Both the position numbers and the translations under genes were made by a program. Of a stretch of DNA of 43,018 bases, positions 2,361-34,003 are shown in pieces; positions within the stretch are counted from its first letter, which is position 1; the number at the start of each line of letters is the position of its first letter. The stretch is taken from NCBI GenBank assembly GCA_964419675.1, contig CAYQPN010000001.1, positions 44,885-87,902 of the forward strand. The letters are read 5' to 3'. The notes beneath the pieces are model-generated. The model was not told the DNA's origin. It was given only the letters and a program-made list of their open reading frames with translations, and searched no databases. This stretch comes from an uncultured Candidatus Saccharibacteria bacterium (lineage in GTDB: Bacteria; Patescibacteriota; Saccharimonadia; Saccharimonadales; SZUA-47).

Positions 2361-3293
2361 ATGAAACAGCTAATACCTCGCTCCTGGCAGGATATGAAGC
2401 GCATGGTTGTAACCATAAGTTTCGTTCTTGCAGCATTCTTCCTCGTGTTGGGTGCCAACGGAGCCAGCGCTCAATCAGACCCAGTCCAATCTGGGTCTGT
2501 TGGTTTAACGGGTACAATCAGTGCTCCGCCACCAACAACGGGTGCTACCATTAGTTTTCCAACAAGTGGCCAAAGTTTTACTGAACTACCGGTAATAATT
2601 AAAGGACTTTGTCCAACTGGTTTATTGGTAAAAGTTTTTAAAAATAATGTATTTGCTGGCTCAGTTCAGTGTGAAAATGGCAGCTTTAGTCTGCAAACCG
2701 ACTTATTTGTTGGTACAAATGAACTTATCGCAAGAGTTTATGATGACTTGGACCAACCAGGCCCGGACTCAAATGTAGTGAACGTTACGTTTAAAGATAA
2801 CCGCATCGGAGCTGGGTCCAGAGTAAGCCTTACCAGTAACTATGCTAAACGCGGAGCTTTTCCAGGTGAAACTTTGACTTGGCCAGTAATTCTAAGTGGA
2901 GGCTCAGGTCCGTACGCTTTCAGCGTAGATTGGGGAGATGGTAAAGAGTTTGACCTCTTCTCTGAGCCATTTGCAGGCACAATAGATTTAAGTCATATTT
3001 ATGATGCTCCAGGTGTTTACAACATAATTGTTAAAACAGTTGATACTAACGGTGTTACAGCGTTCTTGCAGCTTGTCGGTATAGCAAATGGGCCCCTATC
3101 ACAATCTACCGATAATGGTGTTCCTGCCGGGAAAGATAACAGCTTAACCACAACTAAGACTAAAATTTTATGGTGGCCAGCAACCTTACTTGTGCCATTT
3201 GTTGTTTCTACTTTCTGGTTGGGTAAGAAGTATATGGTGCGGGTTATGAAGAAGCGTATTGAGAGAGGCGAGCACCCCTTCGCGGATCTATGA
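2361..3293 (+). CDS. Ig-like/PKD-domain surface protein with C-terminal TM anchor (start may be 2394)
   Basis: Signal peptide ending GASA-Q; PKD motif VDWGDG...HIYDAPGVY; C-terminal hydrophobic segment and basic tail. Confidence 0.7.
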   Translation: MKQLIPRSWQDMKRMVVTISFVLAAFFLVLGANGASAQSDPVQSGSVGLTGTISAPPPTTGATISFPTSGQSFTELPVIIKGLCPTGLLVKVFKNNVFAGSVQCENGSFSLQTDLFVGTNELIARVYDDLDQPGPDSNVVNVTFKDNRIGAGSRVSLTSNYAKRGAFPGETLTWPVILSGGSGPYAFSVDWGDGKEFDLFSEPFAGTIDLSHIYDAPGVYNIIVKTVDTNGVTAFLQLVGIANGPLSQSTDNGVPAGKDNSLTTTKTKILWWPATLLVPFVVSTFWLGKKYMVRVMKKRIERGEHPFADL

Positions 3294-3450
3294 GACAAGG
3301 GCAGGCCCTTTTCTCATCGCGCGGCGTGACTTTCTGAAACAGTTCACTCCGGCTGCTCTTTTCCCAAATCGGAATCTGCTTTCGCCGAAGTGAATTCGCC
3401 GACGCAGATGATTGTTCATTGCGTATCCTCAAAATTCCAATCTGCCTCAA
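3288..3450 (-). repeat. Dispersed structured non-coding element, copy 1 (long form)
   Basis: Shares GAGCAGCCGG, CCGCGCGATGAGA and TCTCATAG blocks with 22563..22629; contains several hairpins. Confidence 0.7.
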
Positions 3451-3523: not shown

Positions 3524-4564
3524 ATGAAAAAGGTTTTTGTTGGTTTATCTGGTGGGGTGGATAGCTCTGTCTCGGCTGCTTTATTGAAAGAGCAGGGCTA
3601 CGACGTAGTTGGAGTTTATATGAAGAACTGGTCAAAAGATTTGCCAGGTTTTCCTTGCCCTTGGAAAGAAGATTATCAGGATGCTAAAAGAGTCGCGGTG
3701 AAACTGGGGATTTCTTTTGAAATGTTTGATTTTGAGAAAGAATATTTTGATAAAGTTGTGCAATACATGTTGGACGGATTTAAATCTGGCATCACTCCAA
3801 ACCCCGATATAATGTGCAATCAAGAGATAAAATTCAAGTTATTTTATGACGTTGCTCGGGCAAAAGGAGCTAATTTTATTTCTACGGGTCATTACGCACA
3901 AACAGAGGATGGTAAATTATTGATGGCCATCGACGGCAATAAAGATCAAACCTATTTTTTGTATAGAATATCTCATGAAGCGCTTGAACACACTTTATTC
4001 CCGATAGGGCATTTGACTAAACCCCAGGTTCGAGAAGAGGCTAAAAAGCGGGGCCTAATTACTGCAAACAAAAAAGAATCTATGGGTATATGTTTTGTTG
4101 GTAAAGTAGGAATTAAAGAATTTCTAAGTCAATATGTAGAAACTAAGCCAGGAAAAATATTAGACCAAAATAGACAAGTCATAGGTGAACATGACGGCGC
4201 AATTTTTTATACTATCGGCCAGAGACACGGCTTGGACGTTGGTGGCGGGTTGCCGTATTACGTAACAGGCAAAGATATGAAGAAAAATGAAGTTTACGTG
4301 ACTAGTAACATATCTGACGAATCTCTCTGGTCAGACACTATCGAGCTGACAAATTGTCATTGGATAAGCGAAGTTCCTAAATCAAATCAAAGACTCCAAG
4401 TACGTACTCGTCATAGGGCTAAACTAGAGGACTGTGAGCTTGTTAAAATTAGTGGAGACAAAGCAACTTTGAAGCTTAAACACCCAATCCGCGCCCTGAC
4501 TCCAGGCCAATCAGCAGTAATATACTCAGAAGATATTTGTTTAGGGGGCGGTATAATCTACTGA
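3524..4564 (+). CDS. mnmA: tRNA 2-thiouridine(34) synthase MnmA
   Basis: SGGVDSS PP-loop; TPNPDIMCN; STGHYA; KDQTYFL; ESMGICF; TPGQSAV. Confidence 0.97.
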   Translation: MKKVFVGLSGGVDSSVSAALLKEQGYDVVGVYMKNWSKDLPGFPCPWKEDYQDAKRVAVKLGISFEMFDFEKEYFDKVVQYMLDGFKSGITPNPDIMCNQEIKFKLFYDVARAKGANFISTGHYAQTEDGKLLMAIDGNKDQTYFLYRISHEALEHTLFPIGHLTKPQVREEAKKRGLITANKKESMGICFVGKVGIKEFLSQYVETKPGKILDQNRQVIGEHDGAIFYTIGQRHGLDVGGGLPYYVTGKDMKKNEVYVTSNISDESLWSDTIELTNCHWISEVPKSNQRLQVRTRHRAKLEDCELVKISGDKATLKLKHPIRALTPGQSAVIYSEDICLGGGIIY

Positions 4565-4607: not shown

Positions 4608-6491
4608 ATGACAGCGCAAGAAATACGTACGGCTTATTTGGCGTTTTTTAAGAAACAGGGGCATGCTGTGATTCCCCGTGCACTATTAATACCTCAAAAT
4701 GACCCAACAACGTTATTTACAGGCTCAGGGATGCAGCCTTTAATTCCGTATCTTCTAGGGGAAAAACATCAAAATGGCACAAGGTTAGTTGATAGTCAAA
4801 CCTGCTTACGTTCTGATGACATAGATGAGGTTGGGGACAATCGTCATACAACATTTTTTGAGATGTTAGGAAATTGGAGCTTAGGAGATTATTTTAAAAA
4901 AGAACAGCTCGGGTGGTTTTTTGAGTTTTTAGTCGGAGAGGTTGGCTTAGACCCTCAAAGACTGTACGTAACTTGCTGTAGCGGGTTCCCAGAGTTCAAC
5001 GTCCCAAAAGATACTGAATCTGCTGAGATATGGACGGGACTATTCAGCGAACAAGGTGTTGGAACTAAGCAGGTAGAAATTGGCTCTGAACAAAATGGTT
5101 ATAAAGTGGGTGAGCAAGGTGGCCGGATATTCTTCTATGACGAAAAAAATTGGTGGAGCAGAAACGGTGCTCCTAAGAACGTGAAAGTTGGAGAGCCTTG
5201 TGGCCCTGACAGCGAAGTTTTTTATGTTTTTGAGCAAGTTAAGCATGATAAAAAATGGGGTGAATTTTGCCACCCAAACTGTGATTGCGGTCGCTATGTA
5301 GAAATAGGTAATTCTGTATTTATGGAATATTTAAAAACAGAAAAAGGTTTTGAAAAGCTTCCATCTAAAAACGTAGACTTCGGAGGTGGATTAGAGCGCA
5401 TTGCCACAGCTTCCATAGACAGCCCCGACTTCTTTAAGATTAGTATTCTATGGCCAATTATTGAGAAACTAGTGGATCTATCTGGCAAATCTTACGAATC
5501 AAATACTGAGGCAATGCGGATAATCGCTGACCATTTACGGGCTGCGACATTCTTGGCTGTTGACGGAGTTGTGCCAAACAATAAAGAACAGGGCTATGTT
5601 ATGCGCCGTCTAATGAGAAGAGCGATTTTGAAAGCTTTCAATCTTGGGATTGAACAAAATTTCATGCAAGAAGTCGTTCCGGTTATTGCAGATTTATATC
5701 ATGAAGATTTTCCGGAAGTTAAAGAAAATAGAATGAAAGTGATTGATGTGCTTGCTAAAGAAGAGAAGATTTTTCGCCAGACAATTAGGAATGGAAAAAG
5801 AATCCTCACAAAAATGTCAGACAACGGCTTAACTGGAGCAGAAGTATTCATGCTTCACGACACATATGGCTTTCCTGTGGAGCTGAGTATCGAAGAAGCA
5901 AAAGTAAACGGAGTAAAAGTAGACGAGAATTGGCAATCAGAATTTGATGTAAAAATGAAAGAACAGCGAGAGCGCTCGCAAACCGCTGCAAAAGGGACTT
6001 TTAAGGGTGGTCTTGGTGGTCAAAGTCTTCAGCATATGAAGTATCACACAGCAACGCATCTAATGTATCAGGCGCTTCGAGAGGTTTTGGGCGACCACGT
6101 TGTACAGCACGGGTCTAATATCACAGAAGAACGTTTACGCTTTGATTTTTCACATCTTGAAAAAGTTACACCAGAGCAAATTGCCAAAGTTGAAGAAATT
6201 GTGAATAAGCAGATAGCTAATGATTTAAAAGTAACTTGGGCAGAATATCCAACTGCGGAGGCAACAGGAAAACTTGGTGCGCTTGGACAATTTGGCGACC
6301 GCTACGGCGACACAGTCAAGGTTTATAAAATGATTGCTGATAACGCCGATAAACCATTTAGCTTTGAAATCTGCGGAGGTCCACATGTTGACCACACTCT
6401 TCAGCTTTTTGAAGACAACAAAAAATTCAAAATCCTAAAAGAAGAATCAAGTTCAGCCGGAATCCGTAGAATTAAAGCCGCTCTGGTTTAA
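4608..6491 (+). CDS. alaS: Alanine--tRNA ligase, short form lacking the C-Ala domain
   Basis: DPTTLFT; RHTTFFEMLGNWS; GGGLER; IADHLRA; HTATH...CGGPH editing motif; ends at AGIRRIKAALV. Confidence 0.96.
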   Translation: MTAQEIRTAYLAFFKKQGHAVIPRALLIPQNDPTTLFTGSGMQPLIPYLLGEKHQNGTRLVDSQTCLRSDDIDEVGDNRHTTFFEMLGNWSLGDYFKKEQLGWFFEFLVGEVGLDPQRLYVTCCSGFPEFNVPKDTESAEIWTGLFSEQGVGTKQVEIGSEQNGYKVGEQGGRIFFYDEKNWWSRNGAPKNVKVGEPCGPDSEVFYVFEQVKHDKKWGEFCHPNCDCGRYVEIGNSVFMEYLKTEKGFEKLPSKNVDFGGGLERIATASIDSPDFFKISILWPIIEKLVDLSGKSYESNTEAMRIIADHLRAATFLAVDGVVPNNKEQGYVMRRLMRRAILKAFNLGIEQNFMQEVVPVIADLYHEDFPEVKENRMKVIDVLAKEEKIFRQTIRNGKRILTKMSDNGLTGAEVFMLHDTYGFPVELSIEEAKVNGVKVDENWQSEFDVKMKEQRERSQTAAKGTFKGGLGGQSLQHMKYHTATHLMYQALREVLGDHVVQHGSNITEERLRFDFSHLEKVTPEQIAKVEEIVNKQIANDLKVTWAEYPTAEATGKLGALGQFGDRYGDTVKVYKMIADNADKPFSFEICGGPHVDHTLQLFEDNKKFKILKEESSSAGIRRIKAALV

Positions 6492-22536: not shown

Positions 22537-22562
22537 TCTGATTATTATATTGTCCCAGGGGT

Positions 22563-22629
22563 GAGCAGCCGGCTGAAGCTATTTACTCGATTCTTCCGCG
22601 CGATGAGAGGGGATGCTCCCCTCTCATAG
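22563..22629 (+). repeat. Dispersed structured non-coding element, copy 2 (short form); the hairpin may also terminate convergent transcription
   Basis: GAGCAGCCGG...CCGCGCG-ATGAGAGGGGA-tgc-TCCCCTCTCAT-AG. Confidence 0.7.
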
Positions 22630-22631
22630 GG

Positions 22632-24407
22632 TCAGTCCTGTAAAAATCCACCAGATTGGTGGCTCCAGAGACGGGCGTAGAGCCCGTCTTTCTTTGCTAT
22701 CAGCTCTTTGTGTGTTCCTTCTTCAACTATTCTACCTTCGTCTAAAACTAATATCCTATCCATTTTTTGGATTGTGCTCAAGCGGTGGGCAATAACAATA
22801 GCTGTACGGCCTTCCATAAGTTTCCACAGTGCTTGCTGGATCAGTACTTCACTTTCTGAATCAAGAGCACTTGTAGCCTCGTCCAGTACCAATATCGGTG
22901 CATCTTTAAGCATTGCTCGGGCAATAGCCACACGCTGACGTTGCCCACCGGACAGCTTAACACCTCTCTCTCCGACAAGGGTTTCGTATCCTTGAGAAAG
23001 CTCATTTATGAACTTATCGGCGCTAGCGTTTTTAGAAGCAGTTACTATTTCTTTTTTTGTAGCGTTTAATTTTCCATAAGAGATATTTTCGGTCAGAGTC
23101 CGGTGAAACAATAGTGGCTCTTGTGGAACGTAGGAGATATAATTTCTTATATCCGCTTGCTTAACTTTTGAAATATCTTGTCCGCCTACTAAAATTTGTC
23201 CTTCTTGGATGTCCATAAAGCGCATTAGTAGTTTGGTTATGGATGTTTTTCCTCCTCCGCTTGGGCCTACCAAGCCAATTTTTTCTCCGGGCTTCACTTC
23301 AAAATTCAAGTTGCTAAACAAGGCAGTCTTCTGATTGTTTTCTGGGTACCAAAAAGAAAGATTCTCTACTTTGATACCACTATTAATCGGTAGAAATCTA
23401 TCAGCGTTTTTGGGATCTTGGACTTCTGGTTTGCTTAATAGAATCTCTGTCATATCACTGGCGTCTCCAAACACGCGTGTAAACTGTCGAAAAGTGTTGT
23501 TAAGGTCCCACAGACGTCGCATTATCCCGATGGTGTATGTAAGAGCCAGGTAAATTACTCCAACTTCAATTTTTCCACCAACAGCTAAAATTACAGATAC
23601 TAAAATTGCAAATACATTGATGCTCCTCTGGAGAGAACCACTGACTAGTTCCTGCTTCATGTTTATCCTCATAGTCTCTATCGATCGTTGTCGCACTTCT
23701 TCAACCCGCTCGCGCATTCGCTTTAACTCCAGAGCTTCGTTTGCAAAAGATTTAACCGCGACTACGTTGGAAATAGAATCAGCTAGCTGACCGGTTCGAT
23801 GCGTCTCAGCCTTCGACCAGCGTTTGTTATAGGGCAATTGTCGTTTTCTGAAATACCAAACAACAGGTACATAAATTATGGTAATTATCCAAATCCCAAC
23901 TACAACTTGAGGCGCTTTTGGAGCAAGTATCAAAGATGTGAAAATGATTGAAAGAACAAGTTTATAGACGTTCCAGGTAAGTGGGTCTGTGAATCTTTCA
24001 AACGAACCTACGAATTTGTTGGTTTGGTTGACAATTGAGCCAGCAAATCTCTCAGCAAAAAAGCGGTAGCTCATACCCTGCAAATGCTTGAACACTGTCA
24101 TGTTTAGGTCGCGCATGACTGTTTCTTGCAAGCGCCAAAAAATTGGCACAACAACCTTATTCCACATTAAATGGCCAAATGCTTCAAGAAGAAATATAAA
24201 TAGTAGGGGTTTCCAAACTACCGAGGCAGCCAATTGGTCAGTATTGTTCTGGGCTATATTAGTAATAATTGCGCTCACCAAAAGGGGCTGAAGCATATCT
24301 TCGGCAAATTGAGTAATAGCCATGGAAGGGTAAATAATCCATAGCTCGCGCTTGTATTTCTTTGTGTGCTGCCAATATATACGCAGCGTTTGTGATGCCG
24401 TGCTCAT
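22632..24407 (-). CDS. ABC exporter, fused permease/ATPase (MdlB/MsbA-like)
   Basis: Multi-TM N-terminal domain; GPSGGGKT; LSGGQRQR; LVLDEATSALD; IAHRLST. Confidence 0.93.
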   Translation of the reverse strand: MSTASQTLRIYWQHTKKYKRELWIIYPSMAITQFAEDMLQPLLVSAIITNIAQNNTDQLAASVVWKPLLFIFLLEAFGHLMWNKVVVPIFWRLQETVMRDLNMTVFKHLQGMSYRFFAERFAGSIVNQTNKFVGSFERFTDPLTWNVYKLVLSIIFTSLILAPKAPQVVVGIWIITIIYVPVVWYFRKRQLPYNKRWSKAETHRTGQLADSISNVVAVKSFANEALELKRMRERVEEVRQRSIETMRINMKQELVSGSLQRSINVFAILVSVILAVGGKIEVGVIYLALTYTIGIMRRLWDLNNTFRQFTRVFGDASDMTEILLSKPEVQDPKNADRFLPINSGIKVENLSFWYPENNQKTALFSNLNFEVKPGEKIGLVGPSGGGKTSITKLLMRFMDIQEGQILVGGQDISKVKQADIRNYISYVPQEPLLFHRTLTENISYGKLNATKKEIVTASKNASADKFINELSQGYETLVGERGVKLSGGQRQRVAIARAMLKDAPILVLDEATSALDSESEVLIQQALWKLMEGRTAIVIAHRLSTIQKMDRILVLDEGRIVEEGTHKELIAKKDGLYARLWSHQSGGFLQD

Positions 24408-28542: not shown

Positions 28543-28580
28543 CTACACATATTATACGCTATAGCGTATAATATGTGTAG
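28543..28580. repeat. Perfect 38-bp palindrome with no spacer
   Basis: ctacacatattatacgctatagcgtataatatgtgtag is its own reverse complement. Confidence 0.9.
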
Positions 28581-31195: not shown

Positions 31196-32833
31196 GTGAA
31201 TAAAATTGCTCATTATTTACAACAGCACCTTGTCGGTGAAGTGCTAACGAGTCCTGATGTTCTGAAATATTTTTCTACAGATGAAAGCATATTTGAGATT
31301 AGGCCTTTGGTAGTAGTACATCCGAGAAACGAAAATGACTTACGCAAATCAGCAAGGTTTACTTGGCAACTAGCAGAGAGGGGACGGGTTATACCAATTA
31401 CAATCAAGGGCAAGGGCACAGATGTGACCGGAGCAAGTCTTGGCAATGGACTGGTGCTTTCAACTCCTGCTCATATGAATAAGATAATCGAACTTGACCC
31501 TAAATCTGGCATAATCAGCGTCGAAACAGGAGCAGTCGTTGGTAAGGTACAGCAAACCTTGTATACCCATGGTCGTTTCATACCGGCATTTTCGAATTCG
31601 GCTGAGTACAGTACTATCGGTGGTGCAGTTGCCAACAATGATGCAGGAAGTGGATCTTACAAATTTGGTCCAATCAGGGAGTTTGTTAGGGGTACAAGGA
31701 CAGTCTTGGCCAATGGTGAGCTCATAAAAACCGAAAGATTAACTAAAAGAGAACTTAATAAAAAACTTGGGTTGGCGTCATTTGAGGGTGAAATATACCG
31801 CAAGCTAGATAAACTGATTGAAGATTCGCCTGAGGTAATTGATACGCTCAAATTATTGGGCGTTAGGAGCAATGTTGGTTACGCAGTCGGTGAAGTTAAA
31901 CAAAAAGATGGATCTTTCGACCTAACTCCTATAATGGTTGGTAGTCAAGGGACTCTTGGCCTTATTTCTGAAGTCACTTTTGATACCGTCGCCTACAATC
32001 CAAAAACTTCATTAGTTGTGGGACTTTTTGATAATAAGCAGAGTGCCTGGGAAGCAGTTGCCAAGATTAATCAGTTTAAGGATGGGCCGTTAAGTGTAGA
32101 CTTCGTCGATAAATCAGTAATTTCACATGTACAGAAAACAAATCAAAACCTATTTAAAGGTACTATTGAAAGTAATAGTCCAGACACAATTCTATTTGTA
32201 GAGATTGGTGGTGATAGTGAGAGAAGTACTAAAAAGATAATTAAAAAAGTCAGTAGTGTTTTTGATGATTTACAGGCAGAAACAATTGTTCCTGAGCAAG
32301 ACGATGTTGATAGGTGGCAGTCTGTTAAGGACAGTAGTGCGCATTTCTTAAGTTATTCTGATACCAAAGCCCGAGCTCTGCCCCTGCTTGACGATGCTGT
32401 TTTGCCGGTAGAGAGATGTTCTGAGTTTATTTCCCGTGTTGAAGCATTGATGGCCGGAATTGGACTTGAAGATTACGCGTTTTGGGGTCAGGCAGGGTCA
32501 GGTATTATTCATACCGCGCCGATGTTTGATATATCAGCAGTTGGCGACAGACAAAAAATGTTTAAACTTATGGATGAATACTATAGTTTAGTTGCCGAAA
32601 TGGGGGGATCTACGTCCGGGAAGTATGCGGAAGGACGATTGCGGGGTGCTCAATCATACAGAGTGCTAAAACCTGAAGCAATAGATTTGATGCGTAAAGT
32701 AAAAGCCATTTTTGACCCCTTCAACGCATTGAATCCAGGAGTCAAAGTTGACGTAGATATGGAAACACTAAAGCCACTGTTACGCACCAGCTATTCATTT
32801 GACCACCAGTACAGCCATTTACCCAGAAGTTAG
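31196..32833 (+). CDS. FAD-binding oxidoreductase (GlcD/D-lactate dehydrogenase family)
   Basis: KGKGTDVTG; STIGGAVANN; GSQGTLGLI; KAIFDPFNALNPG. Confidence 0.85.
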   Translation: MNKIAHYLQQHLVGEVLTSPDVLKYFSTDESIFEIRPLVVVHPRNENDLRKSARFTWQLAERGRVIPITIKGKGTDVTGASLGNGLVLSTPAHMNKIIELDPKSGIISVETGAVVGKVQQTLYTHGRFIPAFSNSAEYSTIGGAVANNDAGSGSYKFGPIREFVRGTRTVLANGELIKTERLTKRELNKKLGLASFEGEIYRKLDKLIEDSPEVIDTLKLLGVRSNVGYAVGEVKQKDGSFDLTPIMVGSQGTLGLISEVTFDTVAYNPKTSLVVGLFDNKQSAWEAVAKINQFKDGPLSVDFVDKSVISHVQKTNQNLFKGTIESNSPDTILFVEIGGDSERSTKKIIKKVSSVFDDLQAETIVPEQDDVDRWQSVKDSSAHFLSYSDTKARALPLLDDAVLPVERCSEFISRVEALMAGIGLEDYAFWGQAGSGIIHTAPMFDISAVGDRQKMFKLMDEYYSLVAEMGGSTSGKYAEGRLRGAQSYRVLKPEAIDLMRKVKAIFDPFNALNPGVKVDVDMETLKPLLRTSYSFDHQYSHLPRS

Positions 32834-32880
32834 ATTGCATATTTAACAGGCACAAGGTATTCTTTTTTAGTTAGCAATAA

Positions 32881-32964
32881 GCGCGAGTGGTGGAATGGTA
32901 GACACGCTAGTCTGAGGGGCTAGTGTCGCAAGACGTGGAGGTTCAAGTCCTCTCTCGCGCACCA
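32881..32964 (+). tRNA. tRNA-Leu(GAG)
   Basis: Acceptor GCGCGAG/CTCGCGC, anticodon arm ctagt-ctGAGgg-gctag, long variable arm, GTTCAAGTC, encoded CCA. Confidence 0.95.
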
Positions 32965-32987
32965 TAGTGTATAATAAACTAAAGTTT

Positions 32988-33064
32988 GGGTGATTAGCTC
33001 AGTTGGCTAGAGCATCTCGTTTACACCGAGAGGGTCGGGGGTTCAAGTCCCTCATCACCCACCA
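32988..33064 (+). tRNA. tRNA-Val(TAC)
   Basis: Acceptor GGGTGAT/ATCACCC, anticodon arm tctcg-ttTACac-cgaga, GTTCAAGTC, encoded CCA. Confidence 0.96.
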
Positions 33065-33103
33065 ACTAAATAGTCGACCATCTCGGTCGGCTTTTTAGTT
33101 GGT
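33061..33103 (+). terminator. Long hairpin/terminator after tRNA-Val
   Basis: accaactaaa-tagtcgacc-atctc-ggtcggct-ttttagttggt. Confidence 0.7.
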
Positions 33104-33270
33104 GAGGCAGATGAAGTAAGCCAACTGCTTGGCTTGCGACGGACTTGAACAGTCGGAGCGATGTCAGAGTTTTGAGCTTTAGCGAAAAGGCGAAGACCGC
33201 GAGACGGGGTCGCGGAATTTTTCCGTCAGGAAAACTATCGGTGACTCAAGAGTCCTTACGTCACCCACCA
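33103..33270 (+). repeat. tRNA-linked structured element (diverged copy 3) ending in a duplicated tRNA-Val 3' end
   Basis: TGAGGCAGAT, GAACAGTCGGAGCGA and CCGCGAGACGGG resemble copy-1 blocks; tcacccacca 33261-33270 repeats 33055-33064; ggacttgaac 33141-33150 is antisense to the T arm. Confidence 0.6.
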
Positions 33271-33306
33271 AGAAAAAGTCCGGTCGTCTGACCGGATTTT
33301 TTCTTG
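33269..33306 (+). terminator. Intrinsic terminator
   Basis: caagaaaaagtccggtc-gtct-gaccggattttttcttg. Confidence 0.8.
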
Positions 33307-33445
33307 ATCAAGTTATTCTTTTACTTACAAATAAATACAGTGTACGGCCTGACAAGTTGTCTATGGTTTTTTTAGAAGTAGTATTAAAGTGATGTTTTGC
33401 AGGTGTCCCAGGTGATATAATAAAAGGGTAATTAAGGAGAGAAAT

Positions 33446-34003
33446 ATGCTTTGGGTAATATTAGCAGTCGCCGGACTCTTGGTGATTGCACTAGTTGCAA
33501 TGTACAACGGTCTAGTAAAAGGTAAAATCCGAGTTGATGAAGCTTGGAGTGACATAACTGTTCAATTGAAACGTAGAGTAGATTTGATTCCAAACTTAGT
33601 AGAAACCGTAAAAGGATATGCTAAGCATGAAAAAGGGGTGTTTGAAGAAGTAACTAAAGCGCGTGCAGCCGTTACTGGTGCAACTGGAGTTGCAGAGACG
33701 GCTAAAGCTGACAATATGCTTACTGGTGCCCTAAAAAGCTTGTTTGCAGTTGCAGAGGCCTATCCTGACCTTAAGGCCAGCACAAACTTCCAAGATTTGC
33801 AGGCAGAACTTGTCGACACAGAAGACAAAATTCAAGCAGCTCGCAGGTTCTACAACGCTGCTGTTCGTGAATTTAACACTAAAGTTAAGGTGTTCCCAAC
33901 TGTTATTTTTGCAGCAATGCTAGGATTTAGCGCACGAGAATTCTTTGAACTAGAAGAATCAGAACAAGCAGCCGCTCAAAAACCTGTTGACGTCAAATTT
34001 TAG
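33446..34003 (+). CDS. lemA: LemA family protein
   Basis: YNGLV; EAWSDITVQLKRRVDLIPNLV; AEAYPDLKA; ARRFYN; SD AGGAG. Confidence 0.95.
   Translation: MLWVILAVAGLLVIALVAMYNGLVKGKIRVDEAWSDITVQLKRRVDLIPNLVETVKGYAKHEKGVFEEVTKARAAVTGATGVAETAKADNMLTGALKSLFAVAEAYPDLKASTNFQDLQAELVDTEDKIQAARRFYNAAVREFNTKVKVFPTVIFAAMLGFSAREFFELEESEQAAAQKPVDVKF

Follow-up and report, generated by a model that had tools for sequence, protein, structure and literature searches.

What lies behind the tRNA-Val(tac) gene of this uncultured Candidatus Saccharibacteria bacterium, where sequences of the tRNA 3' end recur, both inverted and duplicated, in an insert with no open reading frame (ORF) of note? The window (the whole stretch of 43,018 nt that was analysed) comes from a genome of 783 kb in 6 contigs with 40% G+C, referred to below as G000, and the locus consists of tRNA-Leu(gag) (32881-32964), tRNA-Val(tac) (32988-33064) and an ORF at 33446 that is lemA-like from a reading of its translation. 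We found that 33099-33270 is a member of a conserved family of structured RNA or DNA folds, here called R1, whose fold is under selection and whose copies carry antisense and sense images of the 3' end of the tRNA that they follow. R1 is in turn one subfamily among the tRNA echo modules, a broader class found in Saccharibacteria and in further bacteria of the candidate phyla radiation (CPR). The explanation that we favour, at a probability of about 0.55, is an insertion element that is non-autonomous and targets tRNA transcription units at their 3' end. The parts of the locus, all read on the plus strand, are as follows.

32988-33064, +, tRNA-Val(tac), intact, CCA encoded, last gene of the Leu(gag)/Val pair (ARAGORN; Rfam RF00005, 68.9 bits)
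33044-33064, +, S1, tRNA positions 56-76 from T-loop C56 to CCA, the stretch echoed behind modules of the class; in the window copy only its last 10 nt are echoed exactly
33060-33104, +, hp1, extended hairpin and T-run (CACCAACTAAA-stem-loop-stem-TTTAGTTGGTG), the outer pairs of which take in the tRNA CCA
33099-33116, +, A, degenerate antisense of the tRNA CCA and acceptor 3' strand (TTGGTG..GATGAAG), as seen by comparison with the reverse complement of 33044-33066
33116-33137, +, P1 hairpin, GTAAGCCAA-CTGC-TTGGCTTGC, hallmark of the R1 subfamily
33141-33150, +, A', antisense T-loop GGACTTGAAC, exact antisense of tRNA-Val positions 53-62 (33041-33050)
33152-33205, +, P2 domain, GTCG-GA-GCG ... 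CGC-GA-GAC enclosing a variable hairpin; its G/A internal loop is conserved
33206-33247, +, P3 domain, GGGGTCGCGG...CGGTGACTC, with base GGGGTCGC/GGTGAC
33247-33270, +, S2, the echo, a decayed sense copy of the tRNA from T-loop (CAAGAGTCC) to TCACCCACCA, 10 nt exact, 12 with one mismatch
33271-33306, +, hp2, second terminator of A-run, hairpin and T-run, an inverted repeat that the terminator scan flagged on the minus strand only
33110-33257, +, extent of the match to the R1 covariance model (117.4 bits, E 1.1e-26, filters off)

The start of the module lies 35 nt past the end of tRNA-Val(tac). Each of the sequence features listed in the original prediction is present where it had been placed, and most now find a place in this layout: the antisense of the T arm is A', an exact reverse complement; the stem gggtcgc/gtgactc makes up the base of helix P3 and covaries across the R1 family; the re-created tRNA 3' end repeats the last 10 nt of the tRNA at 33261-33270; and the second terminator is a hairpin and T-run at 33274-33303. 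The arms of hp1 (33060-33079 and 33085-33104) form an inverted repeat of 20-nt arms, 90% complementary, which is terminator-like at 33072-33092 on the plus strand and at 33089-33075 on the minus strand, and a CCAA...TTGG extension of this type is also present in relatives. Written as RNA, P1 reads GTAAGCCAA-CUGC-UUGGCUUGC at this locus, and the echo starts with CAAGAGTCC, compared with CAAGTCCC upstream in the tRNA. The predicted fold of the window copy reaches -62.2 kcal/mol (z = -2.7), with antisense and echo closing the stem. A scan of 32700-33500 for sigma-70-like promoters found none, and the same scan also misses the promoter of the tRNA.

The R1 family and its selected fold

When 33065-33310 was compared by BLAST with 41 relatives, 17 gave matches; those in other genera and in one other family have 73-81% identity over up to ~170 nt (G027, of the other family, up to 76% over ~150 nt). 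An alignment of ten copies, one row of which is the unpublished G006, has compensatory changes at 28 of 37 predicted pairs. The covariance model R1 was built from nine copies, leaving out G006; one row is the window copy and the other eight come from other genomes. At 117.4-117.5 bits (E 1.1e-26) the window copy, itself a training row, is the single match to R1 in the whole G000 genome at E<=10. Within the taxonomic family R1 occurs in 12 of 31 genomes with 0-5 copies each, and across the order in 26 of 151 sampled genomes, a distribution that is both multi-copy and patchy. An exact-pattern scan of the GTDB species genomes returned 42 loci, where R1 gives 49 matches; the 42 are mostly from Saccharibacteria, with some from Nomurabacteria and Paceibacteria and a few from contigs of metagenome-assembled genomes labelled as proteobacteria, which we suspect to be mis-binned.

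The fold was assessed on an alignment of 45 copies. Since this was fitted to the R1 model, its pairing figure is a favourable one: 94.2% of 1756 cells pair, compared with 71.5 +/- 0.7% after shuffling, and none of 500 shuffles reached the observed value. Compensatory changes on both sides are found at 35 of 40 pairs, and slid controls gave at most 45%. Helix 1 (P1) has nine pairs with 99.5% of cells paired, eight of them compensatory; helices 3 and 4 (P2) reach 98.5% and 94.8%, with compensatory changes at nine of ten pairs; helices 5 and 6 (P3) reach 88.7% and 96.8%; and helix 2, between antisense and echo, reaches 82.6%. At two pairs of P3, G-U is conserved (34 and 30 of the 45 copies), and the fold therefore belongs to the tRNA-sense strand.

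No described family was found that covers the module. At the Rfam gathering score only the three tRNAs match, and at E<=10 the region 33050-33320 gives only chance-level hits (MicC with 23.6 bits for a cut-off of 90, and EFASI with 19.9 for 51.2, on the minus strand). Identity with SRP RNA (signal recognition particle), 6S RNA, tmRNA or RNase P RNA, suggested by likenesses in motif, was rejected for lack of Rfam support and because the element is multi-copy and patchy. The viral contigs of IMG/VR contain no match to the R1 hallmark, searched as an exact pattern that would miss divergent copies. A full-text literature search, as far as titles and abstracts go, found no description of such modules. 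For R1 and the wider class, then, no matching paper or Rfam family was found.

Two further observations concern R1-like sequence elsewhere. Contigs labelled Mesorhizobium (L044 at 5028-5063 on the minus strand, L041 and L076) contain the P1 hairpin sequence GGAAAGCCAACTGCTTGGCTTTCC followed by GAAC..GAACGGCCGG, with R1 scores of only 26-28 bits and, in L044, without a module-like layout; this may be chance, or an unrelated repeat with one hairpin in common. In the source metagenome, contig depth, which is an unreliable measure, is 36-105x over 33192-33265 (the P3 region) and ~4x in the flanks, a rise that would fit related modules in other members of the community.

Correspondence with the host tRNA and turnover at tRNA loci

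R1 is tied to tRNA genes. In the set of 45 copies, from which recognised duplicate fetches had been removed although some may remain, 38 lie no more than 120 nt behind a same-strand ARAGORN tRNA; these tRNAs comprise 17 anticodon species, and five copies follow tRNA-Val(tac). The correspondence extends to the individual tRNA. The segment between P1 and P2 is antisense to positions 53-63 of the copy's own tRNA, at 11 of 11 positions in 25 of 41 copies, and its mean score is 10.12 for the own tRNA compared with 8.87 +/- 0.13 for non-cognate ones (maximum 9.24 in 1000 draws). Twelve distinct 11-mers are found, which follow the variant of the host tRNA. The 5' arm, antisense to the acceptor strand, is likewise clearly tRNA-specific, with small indels (e.g., G010, G017, G003, L061 and L066). 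On the sense side, the direct repeat from T-loop to CCA measures 17-55 nt in other R1 copies, and 17-33 nt in most; it extends to 55 nt in G027 and to 52 nt in L062, where the whole hairpin is included. Direct repeats of the tRNA 3' block thus stand at both ends of R1, as they do in cis-mobilizable elements (CIMEs). The window copy has all four traits of the family, namely the model match, a tRNA upstream, the anti-T-loop (antisense to positions 53-63 at 10 of 11, the 10 being contiguous and exact) and a sense echo, here decayed.

The original prediction had proposed an inspection of the downstream flanks of all tRNAs in the genome. This showed that 20 of the 38 tRNA genes of G000 have, 115-206 nt downstream, an echo of at least the last 10 nt of the tRNA (one mismatch being allowed in the seed), so that many other tRNAs carry a flank comparable to that of tRNA-Val, a point in favour of that prediction. 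The commonest length of the exact echo is 21 nt, corresponding to positions 56-76, which is found in 7 of the 20 modules and spans different core types. Decayed modules lie behind at least three further tRNAs, and modules sit behind the last tRNA of a cluster. Their cores fall into several types that are unrelated in sequence and have the architecture of the flanks in common; R1 is represented by the window copy alone, and its P3 base, GGGGTCGC/GGTGAC, recurs in the commonest other core type (the Lys(ttt), Pro(ggg) and Lys(ctt) modules). Behind tRNA-Gln(ttg) (G000:C3:37140-37214, minus strand) there is an exact 16-nt echo of the 3' end only 29 nt downstream, with no folded core between; judging by its layout, it may be a minimal or collapsed module.

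Modules turn over at orthologous sites. At the tRNA-Val(tac)/lemA locus, G024 has one module of a different core type and G029 has two in tandem; the empty site that had been sought in these two genomes is therefore filled in both by another type of module. The hairpin nearest lemA starts with the same 17 nt, CCACCAAGAAAAAGTCC, in G000 and G024, which suggests that the echo and second hairpin are the older 3' end and terminator, and hp2 is probably the original terminator of the locus. Two copies in one genome (L040 and L070) agree in hairpin 1, antisense part, P1 and core, and their decayed echoes are identical. The 3' ends in front of them differ, and one of these ends is itself another module's echo, a case that reads as a unit that has moved. 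At orthologous sites in L046a and L060, the left part (hairpin, antisense and P1) has been swapped exactly at the anti-T-loop. Tandem and nested copies of modules were also found. The original prediction, which spoke of a small mobile element or an RNA pairing with pre-tRNA, is in line with this much: the insert is protein-free, linked to a tRNA and bracketed by duplicated and inverted tRNA 3' sequence, its family behaves as if it were gained and lost at tRNA genes, and the insert might base-pair with the 3' half of the tRNA.

A separate observation in L040, at about 3600-3665, is an inverted-repeat insert of ~60 nt that seems to split the R1 echo (ATCCC, insert, CCACCCTCTCTGCCAAG); in L064, the orthologue of this copy in another genome, the echo is unbroken. 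The insert may be a small hairpin element.

Other repeats in the window

The original prediction had also grouped the tRNA-Val insert with two other places in the window, copy 1 (3260-3450, minus strand) and copy 2, as a third copy of the same element. The resemblances are real: TGAGGCAGAT is present at two places in the window and no more, 33103-33112 (+) and 3440-3449 (-), GAACAGTCGGAGCGA (33147-33161) matches GAGCAGCCGGAGTGA (3344-3358, -) at 12 of 15 positions, and CCGCGAGACGGG matches CCGCGCGATGAG at 9 of 12. They are not above chance, however. One common 10-mer between two stretches of ~200 nt has an estimated chance expectation of about 0.08, and a 15-mer pattern derived from both copies gave at least two matches in 2 of 100 shuffles. 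A covariance model, R2, was built from copy 1 (3281-3370, minus), copy 2 (22551-22639, plus) and 12 other copies in the genome. Over the whole window with filters off, R2 gives 68.7 bits for copy 1 and 65.3 bits for copy 2, and finds nothing on 33099-33270 at E<=10; the nearest match, of 4.8 bits (E 8.3), lies over the tRNA itself. Conversely, R1 has no match on copy 1 and only 15.1 bits (E 0.034), from one hairpin, on copy 2. The shared 10-mer falls in the tRNA-derived part of the module, which is not conserved among R1 relatives. Because R2 misses the region, R1 misses copy 1 and the common 10-mer lies in a non-conserved part, the grouping is unsupported, and that the region is a third copy is scarcely credible.

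The family to which copies 1 and 2 belong is of a different kind. Its architecture is GAGCAGCC-hairpin-GCGCGATGAGA-hairpin, or more fully GGGAAAA-GAGCAGCCGG-hairpin(GATTTAYTC loop)-CCGCGCGATGAGA-hairpin-TCTCATA, with stems that covary, and it gave no Rfam match at E<=1. There are 18 copies in the genome, none of them at 33099-33270, and those in the window are the following.

3280-3370, -, copy 1; the genome relatives match its 3' half
22551-22637, +, copy 2; a further 16 places lie elsewhere in the genome

Most copies are situated just upstream of genes that read, from their N-termini, as nusG, rplJ, rsmH and jag, and the family has the look of a 5'-leader or cis-regulatory motif that has not been described. 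Copy 1 is atypical in pointing into the 3' end of a convergent gene. The window also contains a perfect 38-bp palindrome, CTACACATATTATACGCTA / TAGCGTATAATATGTGTAG, at 28543-28580.

A proposed mobile element or a possible tRNA trailer

If R1 is an insertion element, as we favour, the order of parts would be tRNA, hairpin, antisense of the tRNA 3' end, folded core, sense echo (56-76) and terminator, in a module of ~130-170 nt. The tRNA gene would retain its complete 3' end, a second copy of that end coming to lie behind the insert, with a junction probably near T55/C56. The antisense segment, above all the exact anti-T-loop, would pair with the echo and close the module into a long stem. The strand that folds and is under selection would be the tRNA-sense one, in the form either of RNA transcribed onward from the tRNA or of single-stranded DNA. 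Base pairing would then match the element to its target tRNA, giving the antisense part a guide role, and cutting and joining would be carried out in trans by an enzyme encoded outside the module.

Several points weigh against this explanation. Above all, it does not account for how the antisense and sense parts come to match each new tRNA, and a host function would explain the strongly conserved fold just as well. No pair of otherwise identical empty and filled sites was found; for the youngest-looking copy, that of G027 with its perfect direct repeat of 55 nt, the relatives are too distant for the flank to be aligned and an empty orthologue found. Only one freshwater sample has Logan contigs that contain the stretch; at ~4x they cover the module without differences and show no joint skipping it, too little to speak for or against polymorphism. 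The modules of G000 are diverged, with no sign of recent activity there. Lastly, no mobilising enzyme was identified, G000 having no match to RVT_1 (PF00078), to TnpB-type proteins (PF07282), to IS110 (PF01548) or to serine recombinases or resolvases.

The main rival is that R1 is an RNA in the service of the host, a tRNA trailer transcribed with the tRNA or just behind it. Its antisense part might tune 3' maturation or termination by pairing with either the echo or the 3' half of the tRNA, or the closed stem ending in NCCA might be a decoy or processing stalk. The strongly conserved fold on the tRNA-sense strand suits such a role, as do the position of modules at the ends of tRNA transcription units between two terminator-like hairpins, their presence at more than half of the tRNAs of G000, and echo and antisense parts that remain matched to the tRNA. 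Yet R1 is missing from 125 of the 151 genomes of the order, orthologous sites are occupied by unrelated core types, and several unrelated cores have only the architecture of the flanks in common; moreover, echoes decay (the window copy has only 10 nt exact), tandem and nested copies exist, and the terminator-like hp1 would halt transcription ahead of the module. We therefore regard a host trailer as a serious possibility but a minority one. The module has a counterpart in the tyrT-distal 178-bp repeats of E. coli, the source of RtT RNA (RF00391), which we take to be noncoding repeats behind a tRNA that finish with a duplicate of its 3' end and are released from its transcript. The window module is likewise a unit behind a tRNA that ends in the tRNA 3' terminal sequence, but RF00391 is not matched either at the gathering score or at E<=10 on 33050-33320. 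To our knowledge RtT is confined to one locus in enterobacteria and has no antisense copy of the T-loop, whereas the echo-module class stands behind about half of the G000 tRNAs, and R1 alone behind 17 kinds of tRNA.

A duplicated tRNA 3' end had been read in the original prediction as an integration scar, which in the classical integrase sense is doubtful. The T-loop is a classical sublocation of integrase targets in tRNA genes, and modules could be decayed attachment (att) site scars, attL and attR with a stub between, left in the site from T-loop to 3' end by integrase-borne islands or prophages in the manner of CIMEs. Like tRNA-targeting integrative elements and CIMEs as they are generally known, the modules have a target from T-loop to 3' end, flanking direct repeats, an intact tRNA and tandem accretion at one tRNA. 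However, a module is a gene-free unit of ~170 nt, and its core of ~100 nt, unlike random debris, has a conserved fold that covaries. A unit of exactly this kind is found again in 26 of 151 genomes, and classical att scars do not include an antisense copy of the target. Nor was a cognate integrase found: G000 and each of five other module-bearing genomes (5/5) have a single tyrosine recombinase with a highly similar match (149-159 bits in the 6 genomes), presumably of the housekeeping Xer type, and G000 has no serine recombinase. With no exact match to the R1 hallmark in viral contigs either, att scars are an improbable explanation.

Another candidate source of mobility is the Y1 (HUH) transposase-like protein of G000, which might move the modules as single-stranded DNA, as hairpins resembling REPINs (paired repetitive extragenic palindromes). 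It is encoded outside the window by a single Y1_Tnp-family ORF (G000:C3:187787-188429, minus strand; 214 aa, 43.1 bits), in which HUH-like PNHFH and RYIHRNP motifs can be read and which resembles domesticated genes of the RAYT type (REP-associated tyrosine transposases). Similar ORFs of ~205-230 aa occur in 46 of the 151 genomes of the order, in 1-9 copies each, and are commoner with R1 (14 of 26 R1-positive and 32 of 125 R1-negative genomes; Fisher p = 0.009, uncorrected for relatedness). A single-stranded DNA substrate would be in keeping with hairpins that are strand-specific and contain G-T wobbles, and with REPINs and miniature inverted-repeat transposable elements (MITEs) as commonly described the modules have in common that they are small, protein-free, hairpin-forming, multi-copy and patchy. 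But G027, with the youngest-looking copy, has no Y1 candidate, nor do 12 of the 26 R1-positive genomes, and the association may reflect only that some genomes are rich in mobile DNA. No tRNA or module was seen beside the G000 ORF, the flanks of which were not folded or searched. IS200/IS605-type transposition does not duplicate its target, and the modules differ from REPINs and MITEs in that their inverted repeats are copies of the neighbouring tRNA 3' end, varying from copy to copy, in their strict tie to tRNA 3' ends, and in their complex three-domain core. A Y1-driven origin thus seems more doubtful still.

A reverse transcriptase (RT) is present in four of the five other module-bearing genomes checked. 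The idea that an RT stop at m1A58 sets the length of the echo, giving an 18-nt copy in the style of a retroviral primer-binding site, was dropped because the modal echo of 21 nt includes A58 and G000 has no match to TrmI (PF08704) or to RVT_1.

Two further groups of known systems were compared with the module. In the bridge RNAs of IS110, the omega RNAs of IS200/605 and the exon-binding sites (EBS) of group II introns, a structured RNA of the element matches or complements its own target, and the 3' guide of omega RNA is the flanking target itself. The module, with ~150 nt of structure and target-matching sequence, is of similar make, its echo resembling the flank guide of omega RNA. It differs in lacking an adjoining recombinase, TnpB or RT gene (and any PF07282, PF01548 or PF00078 match in G000) as well as an Rfam match, and in having longer guide-like segments, of 11 and ~21 nt, that pair with each other. 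In the attP of CTX-type phages and the attC of integrons, a single strand folds so that its antisense and sense arms rebuild a double-stranded target, dif or attI sites being used with Xer or IntI; A, A' and the echo would similarly rebuild the duplex of the tRNA gene from T-loop to CCA. Here the site is the T-loop instead of dif or attI, and there is no sign of a recombinase that acts on it.

In a bolder version, the modules would be a protein-free, self-addressing mobile RNA or DNA of a new kind. The folded tRNA-sense strand, carrying both target strands (the antisense T-loop and sense 56-76), would find tRNA 3' ends and at each jump re-copy the target into both segments by templating, either by folding back at the terminator of the tRNA or, like omega RNAs, by reading out into the flank, using only host enzymes or a catalytic P2/P3 core. 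We consider this speculative and, on the whole, unlikely.

If the modules are mobile, they would represent a class of small, gene-free elements that target the most conserved genes of the cell without breaking them, and that are present at over half of the tRNA loci of a 0.78-Mb genome otherwise nearly free of mobile-DNA machinery. The antisense and sense image of the target in each copy suggests an address system based on base pairing, and such systems have repeatedly proved to be programmable, as in group II introns and omega and bridge RNAs. In practical terms, echoes and partial tRNA copies can mislead the annotation of tRNAs, the prediction of att sites and islands, and assembly at tRNA loci. 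If the modules instead serve the host, they would reveal an unrecognised layer of tRNA-operon architecture in CPR bacteria.

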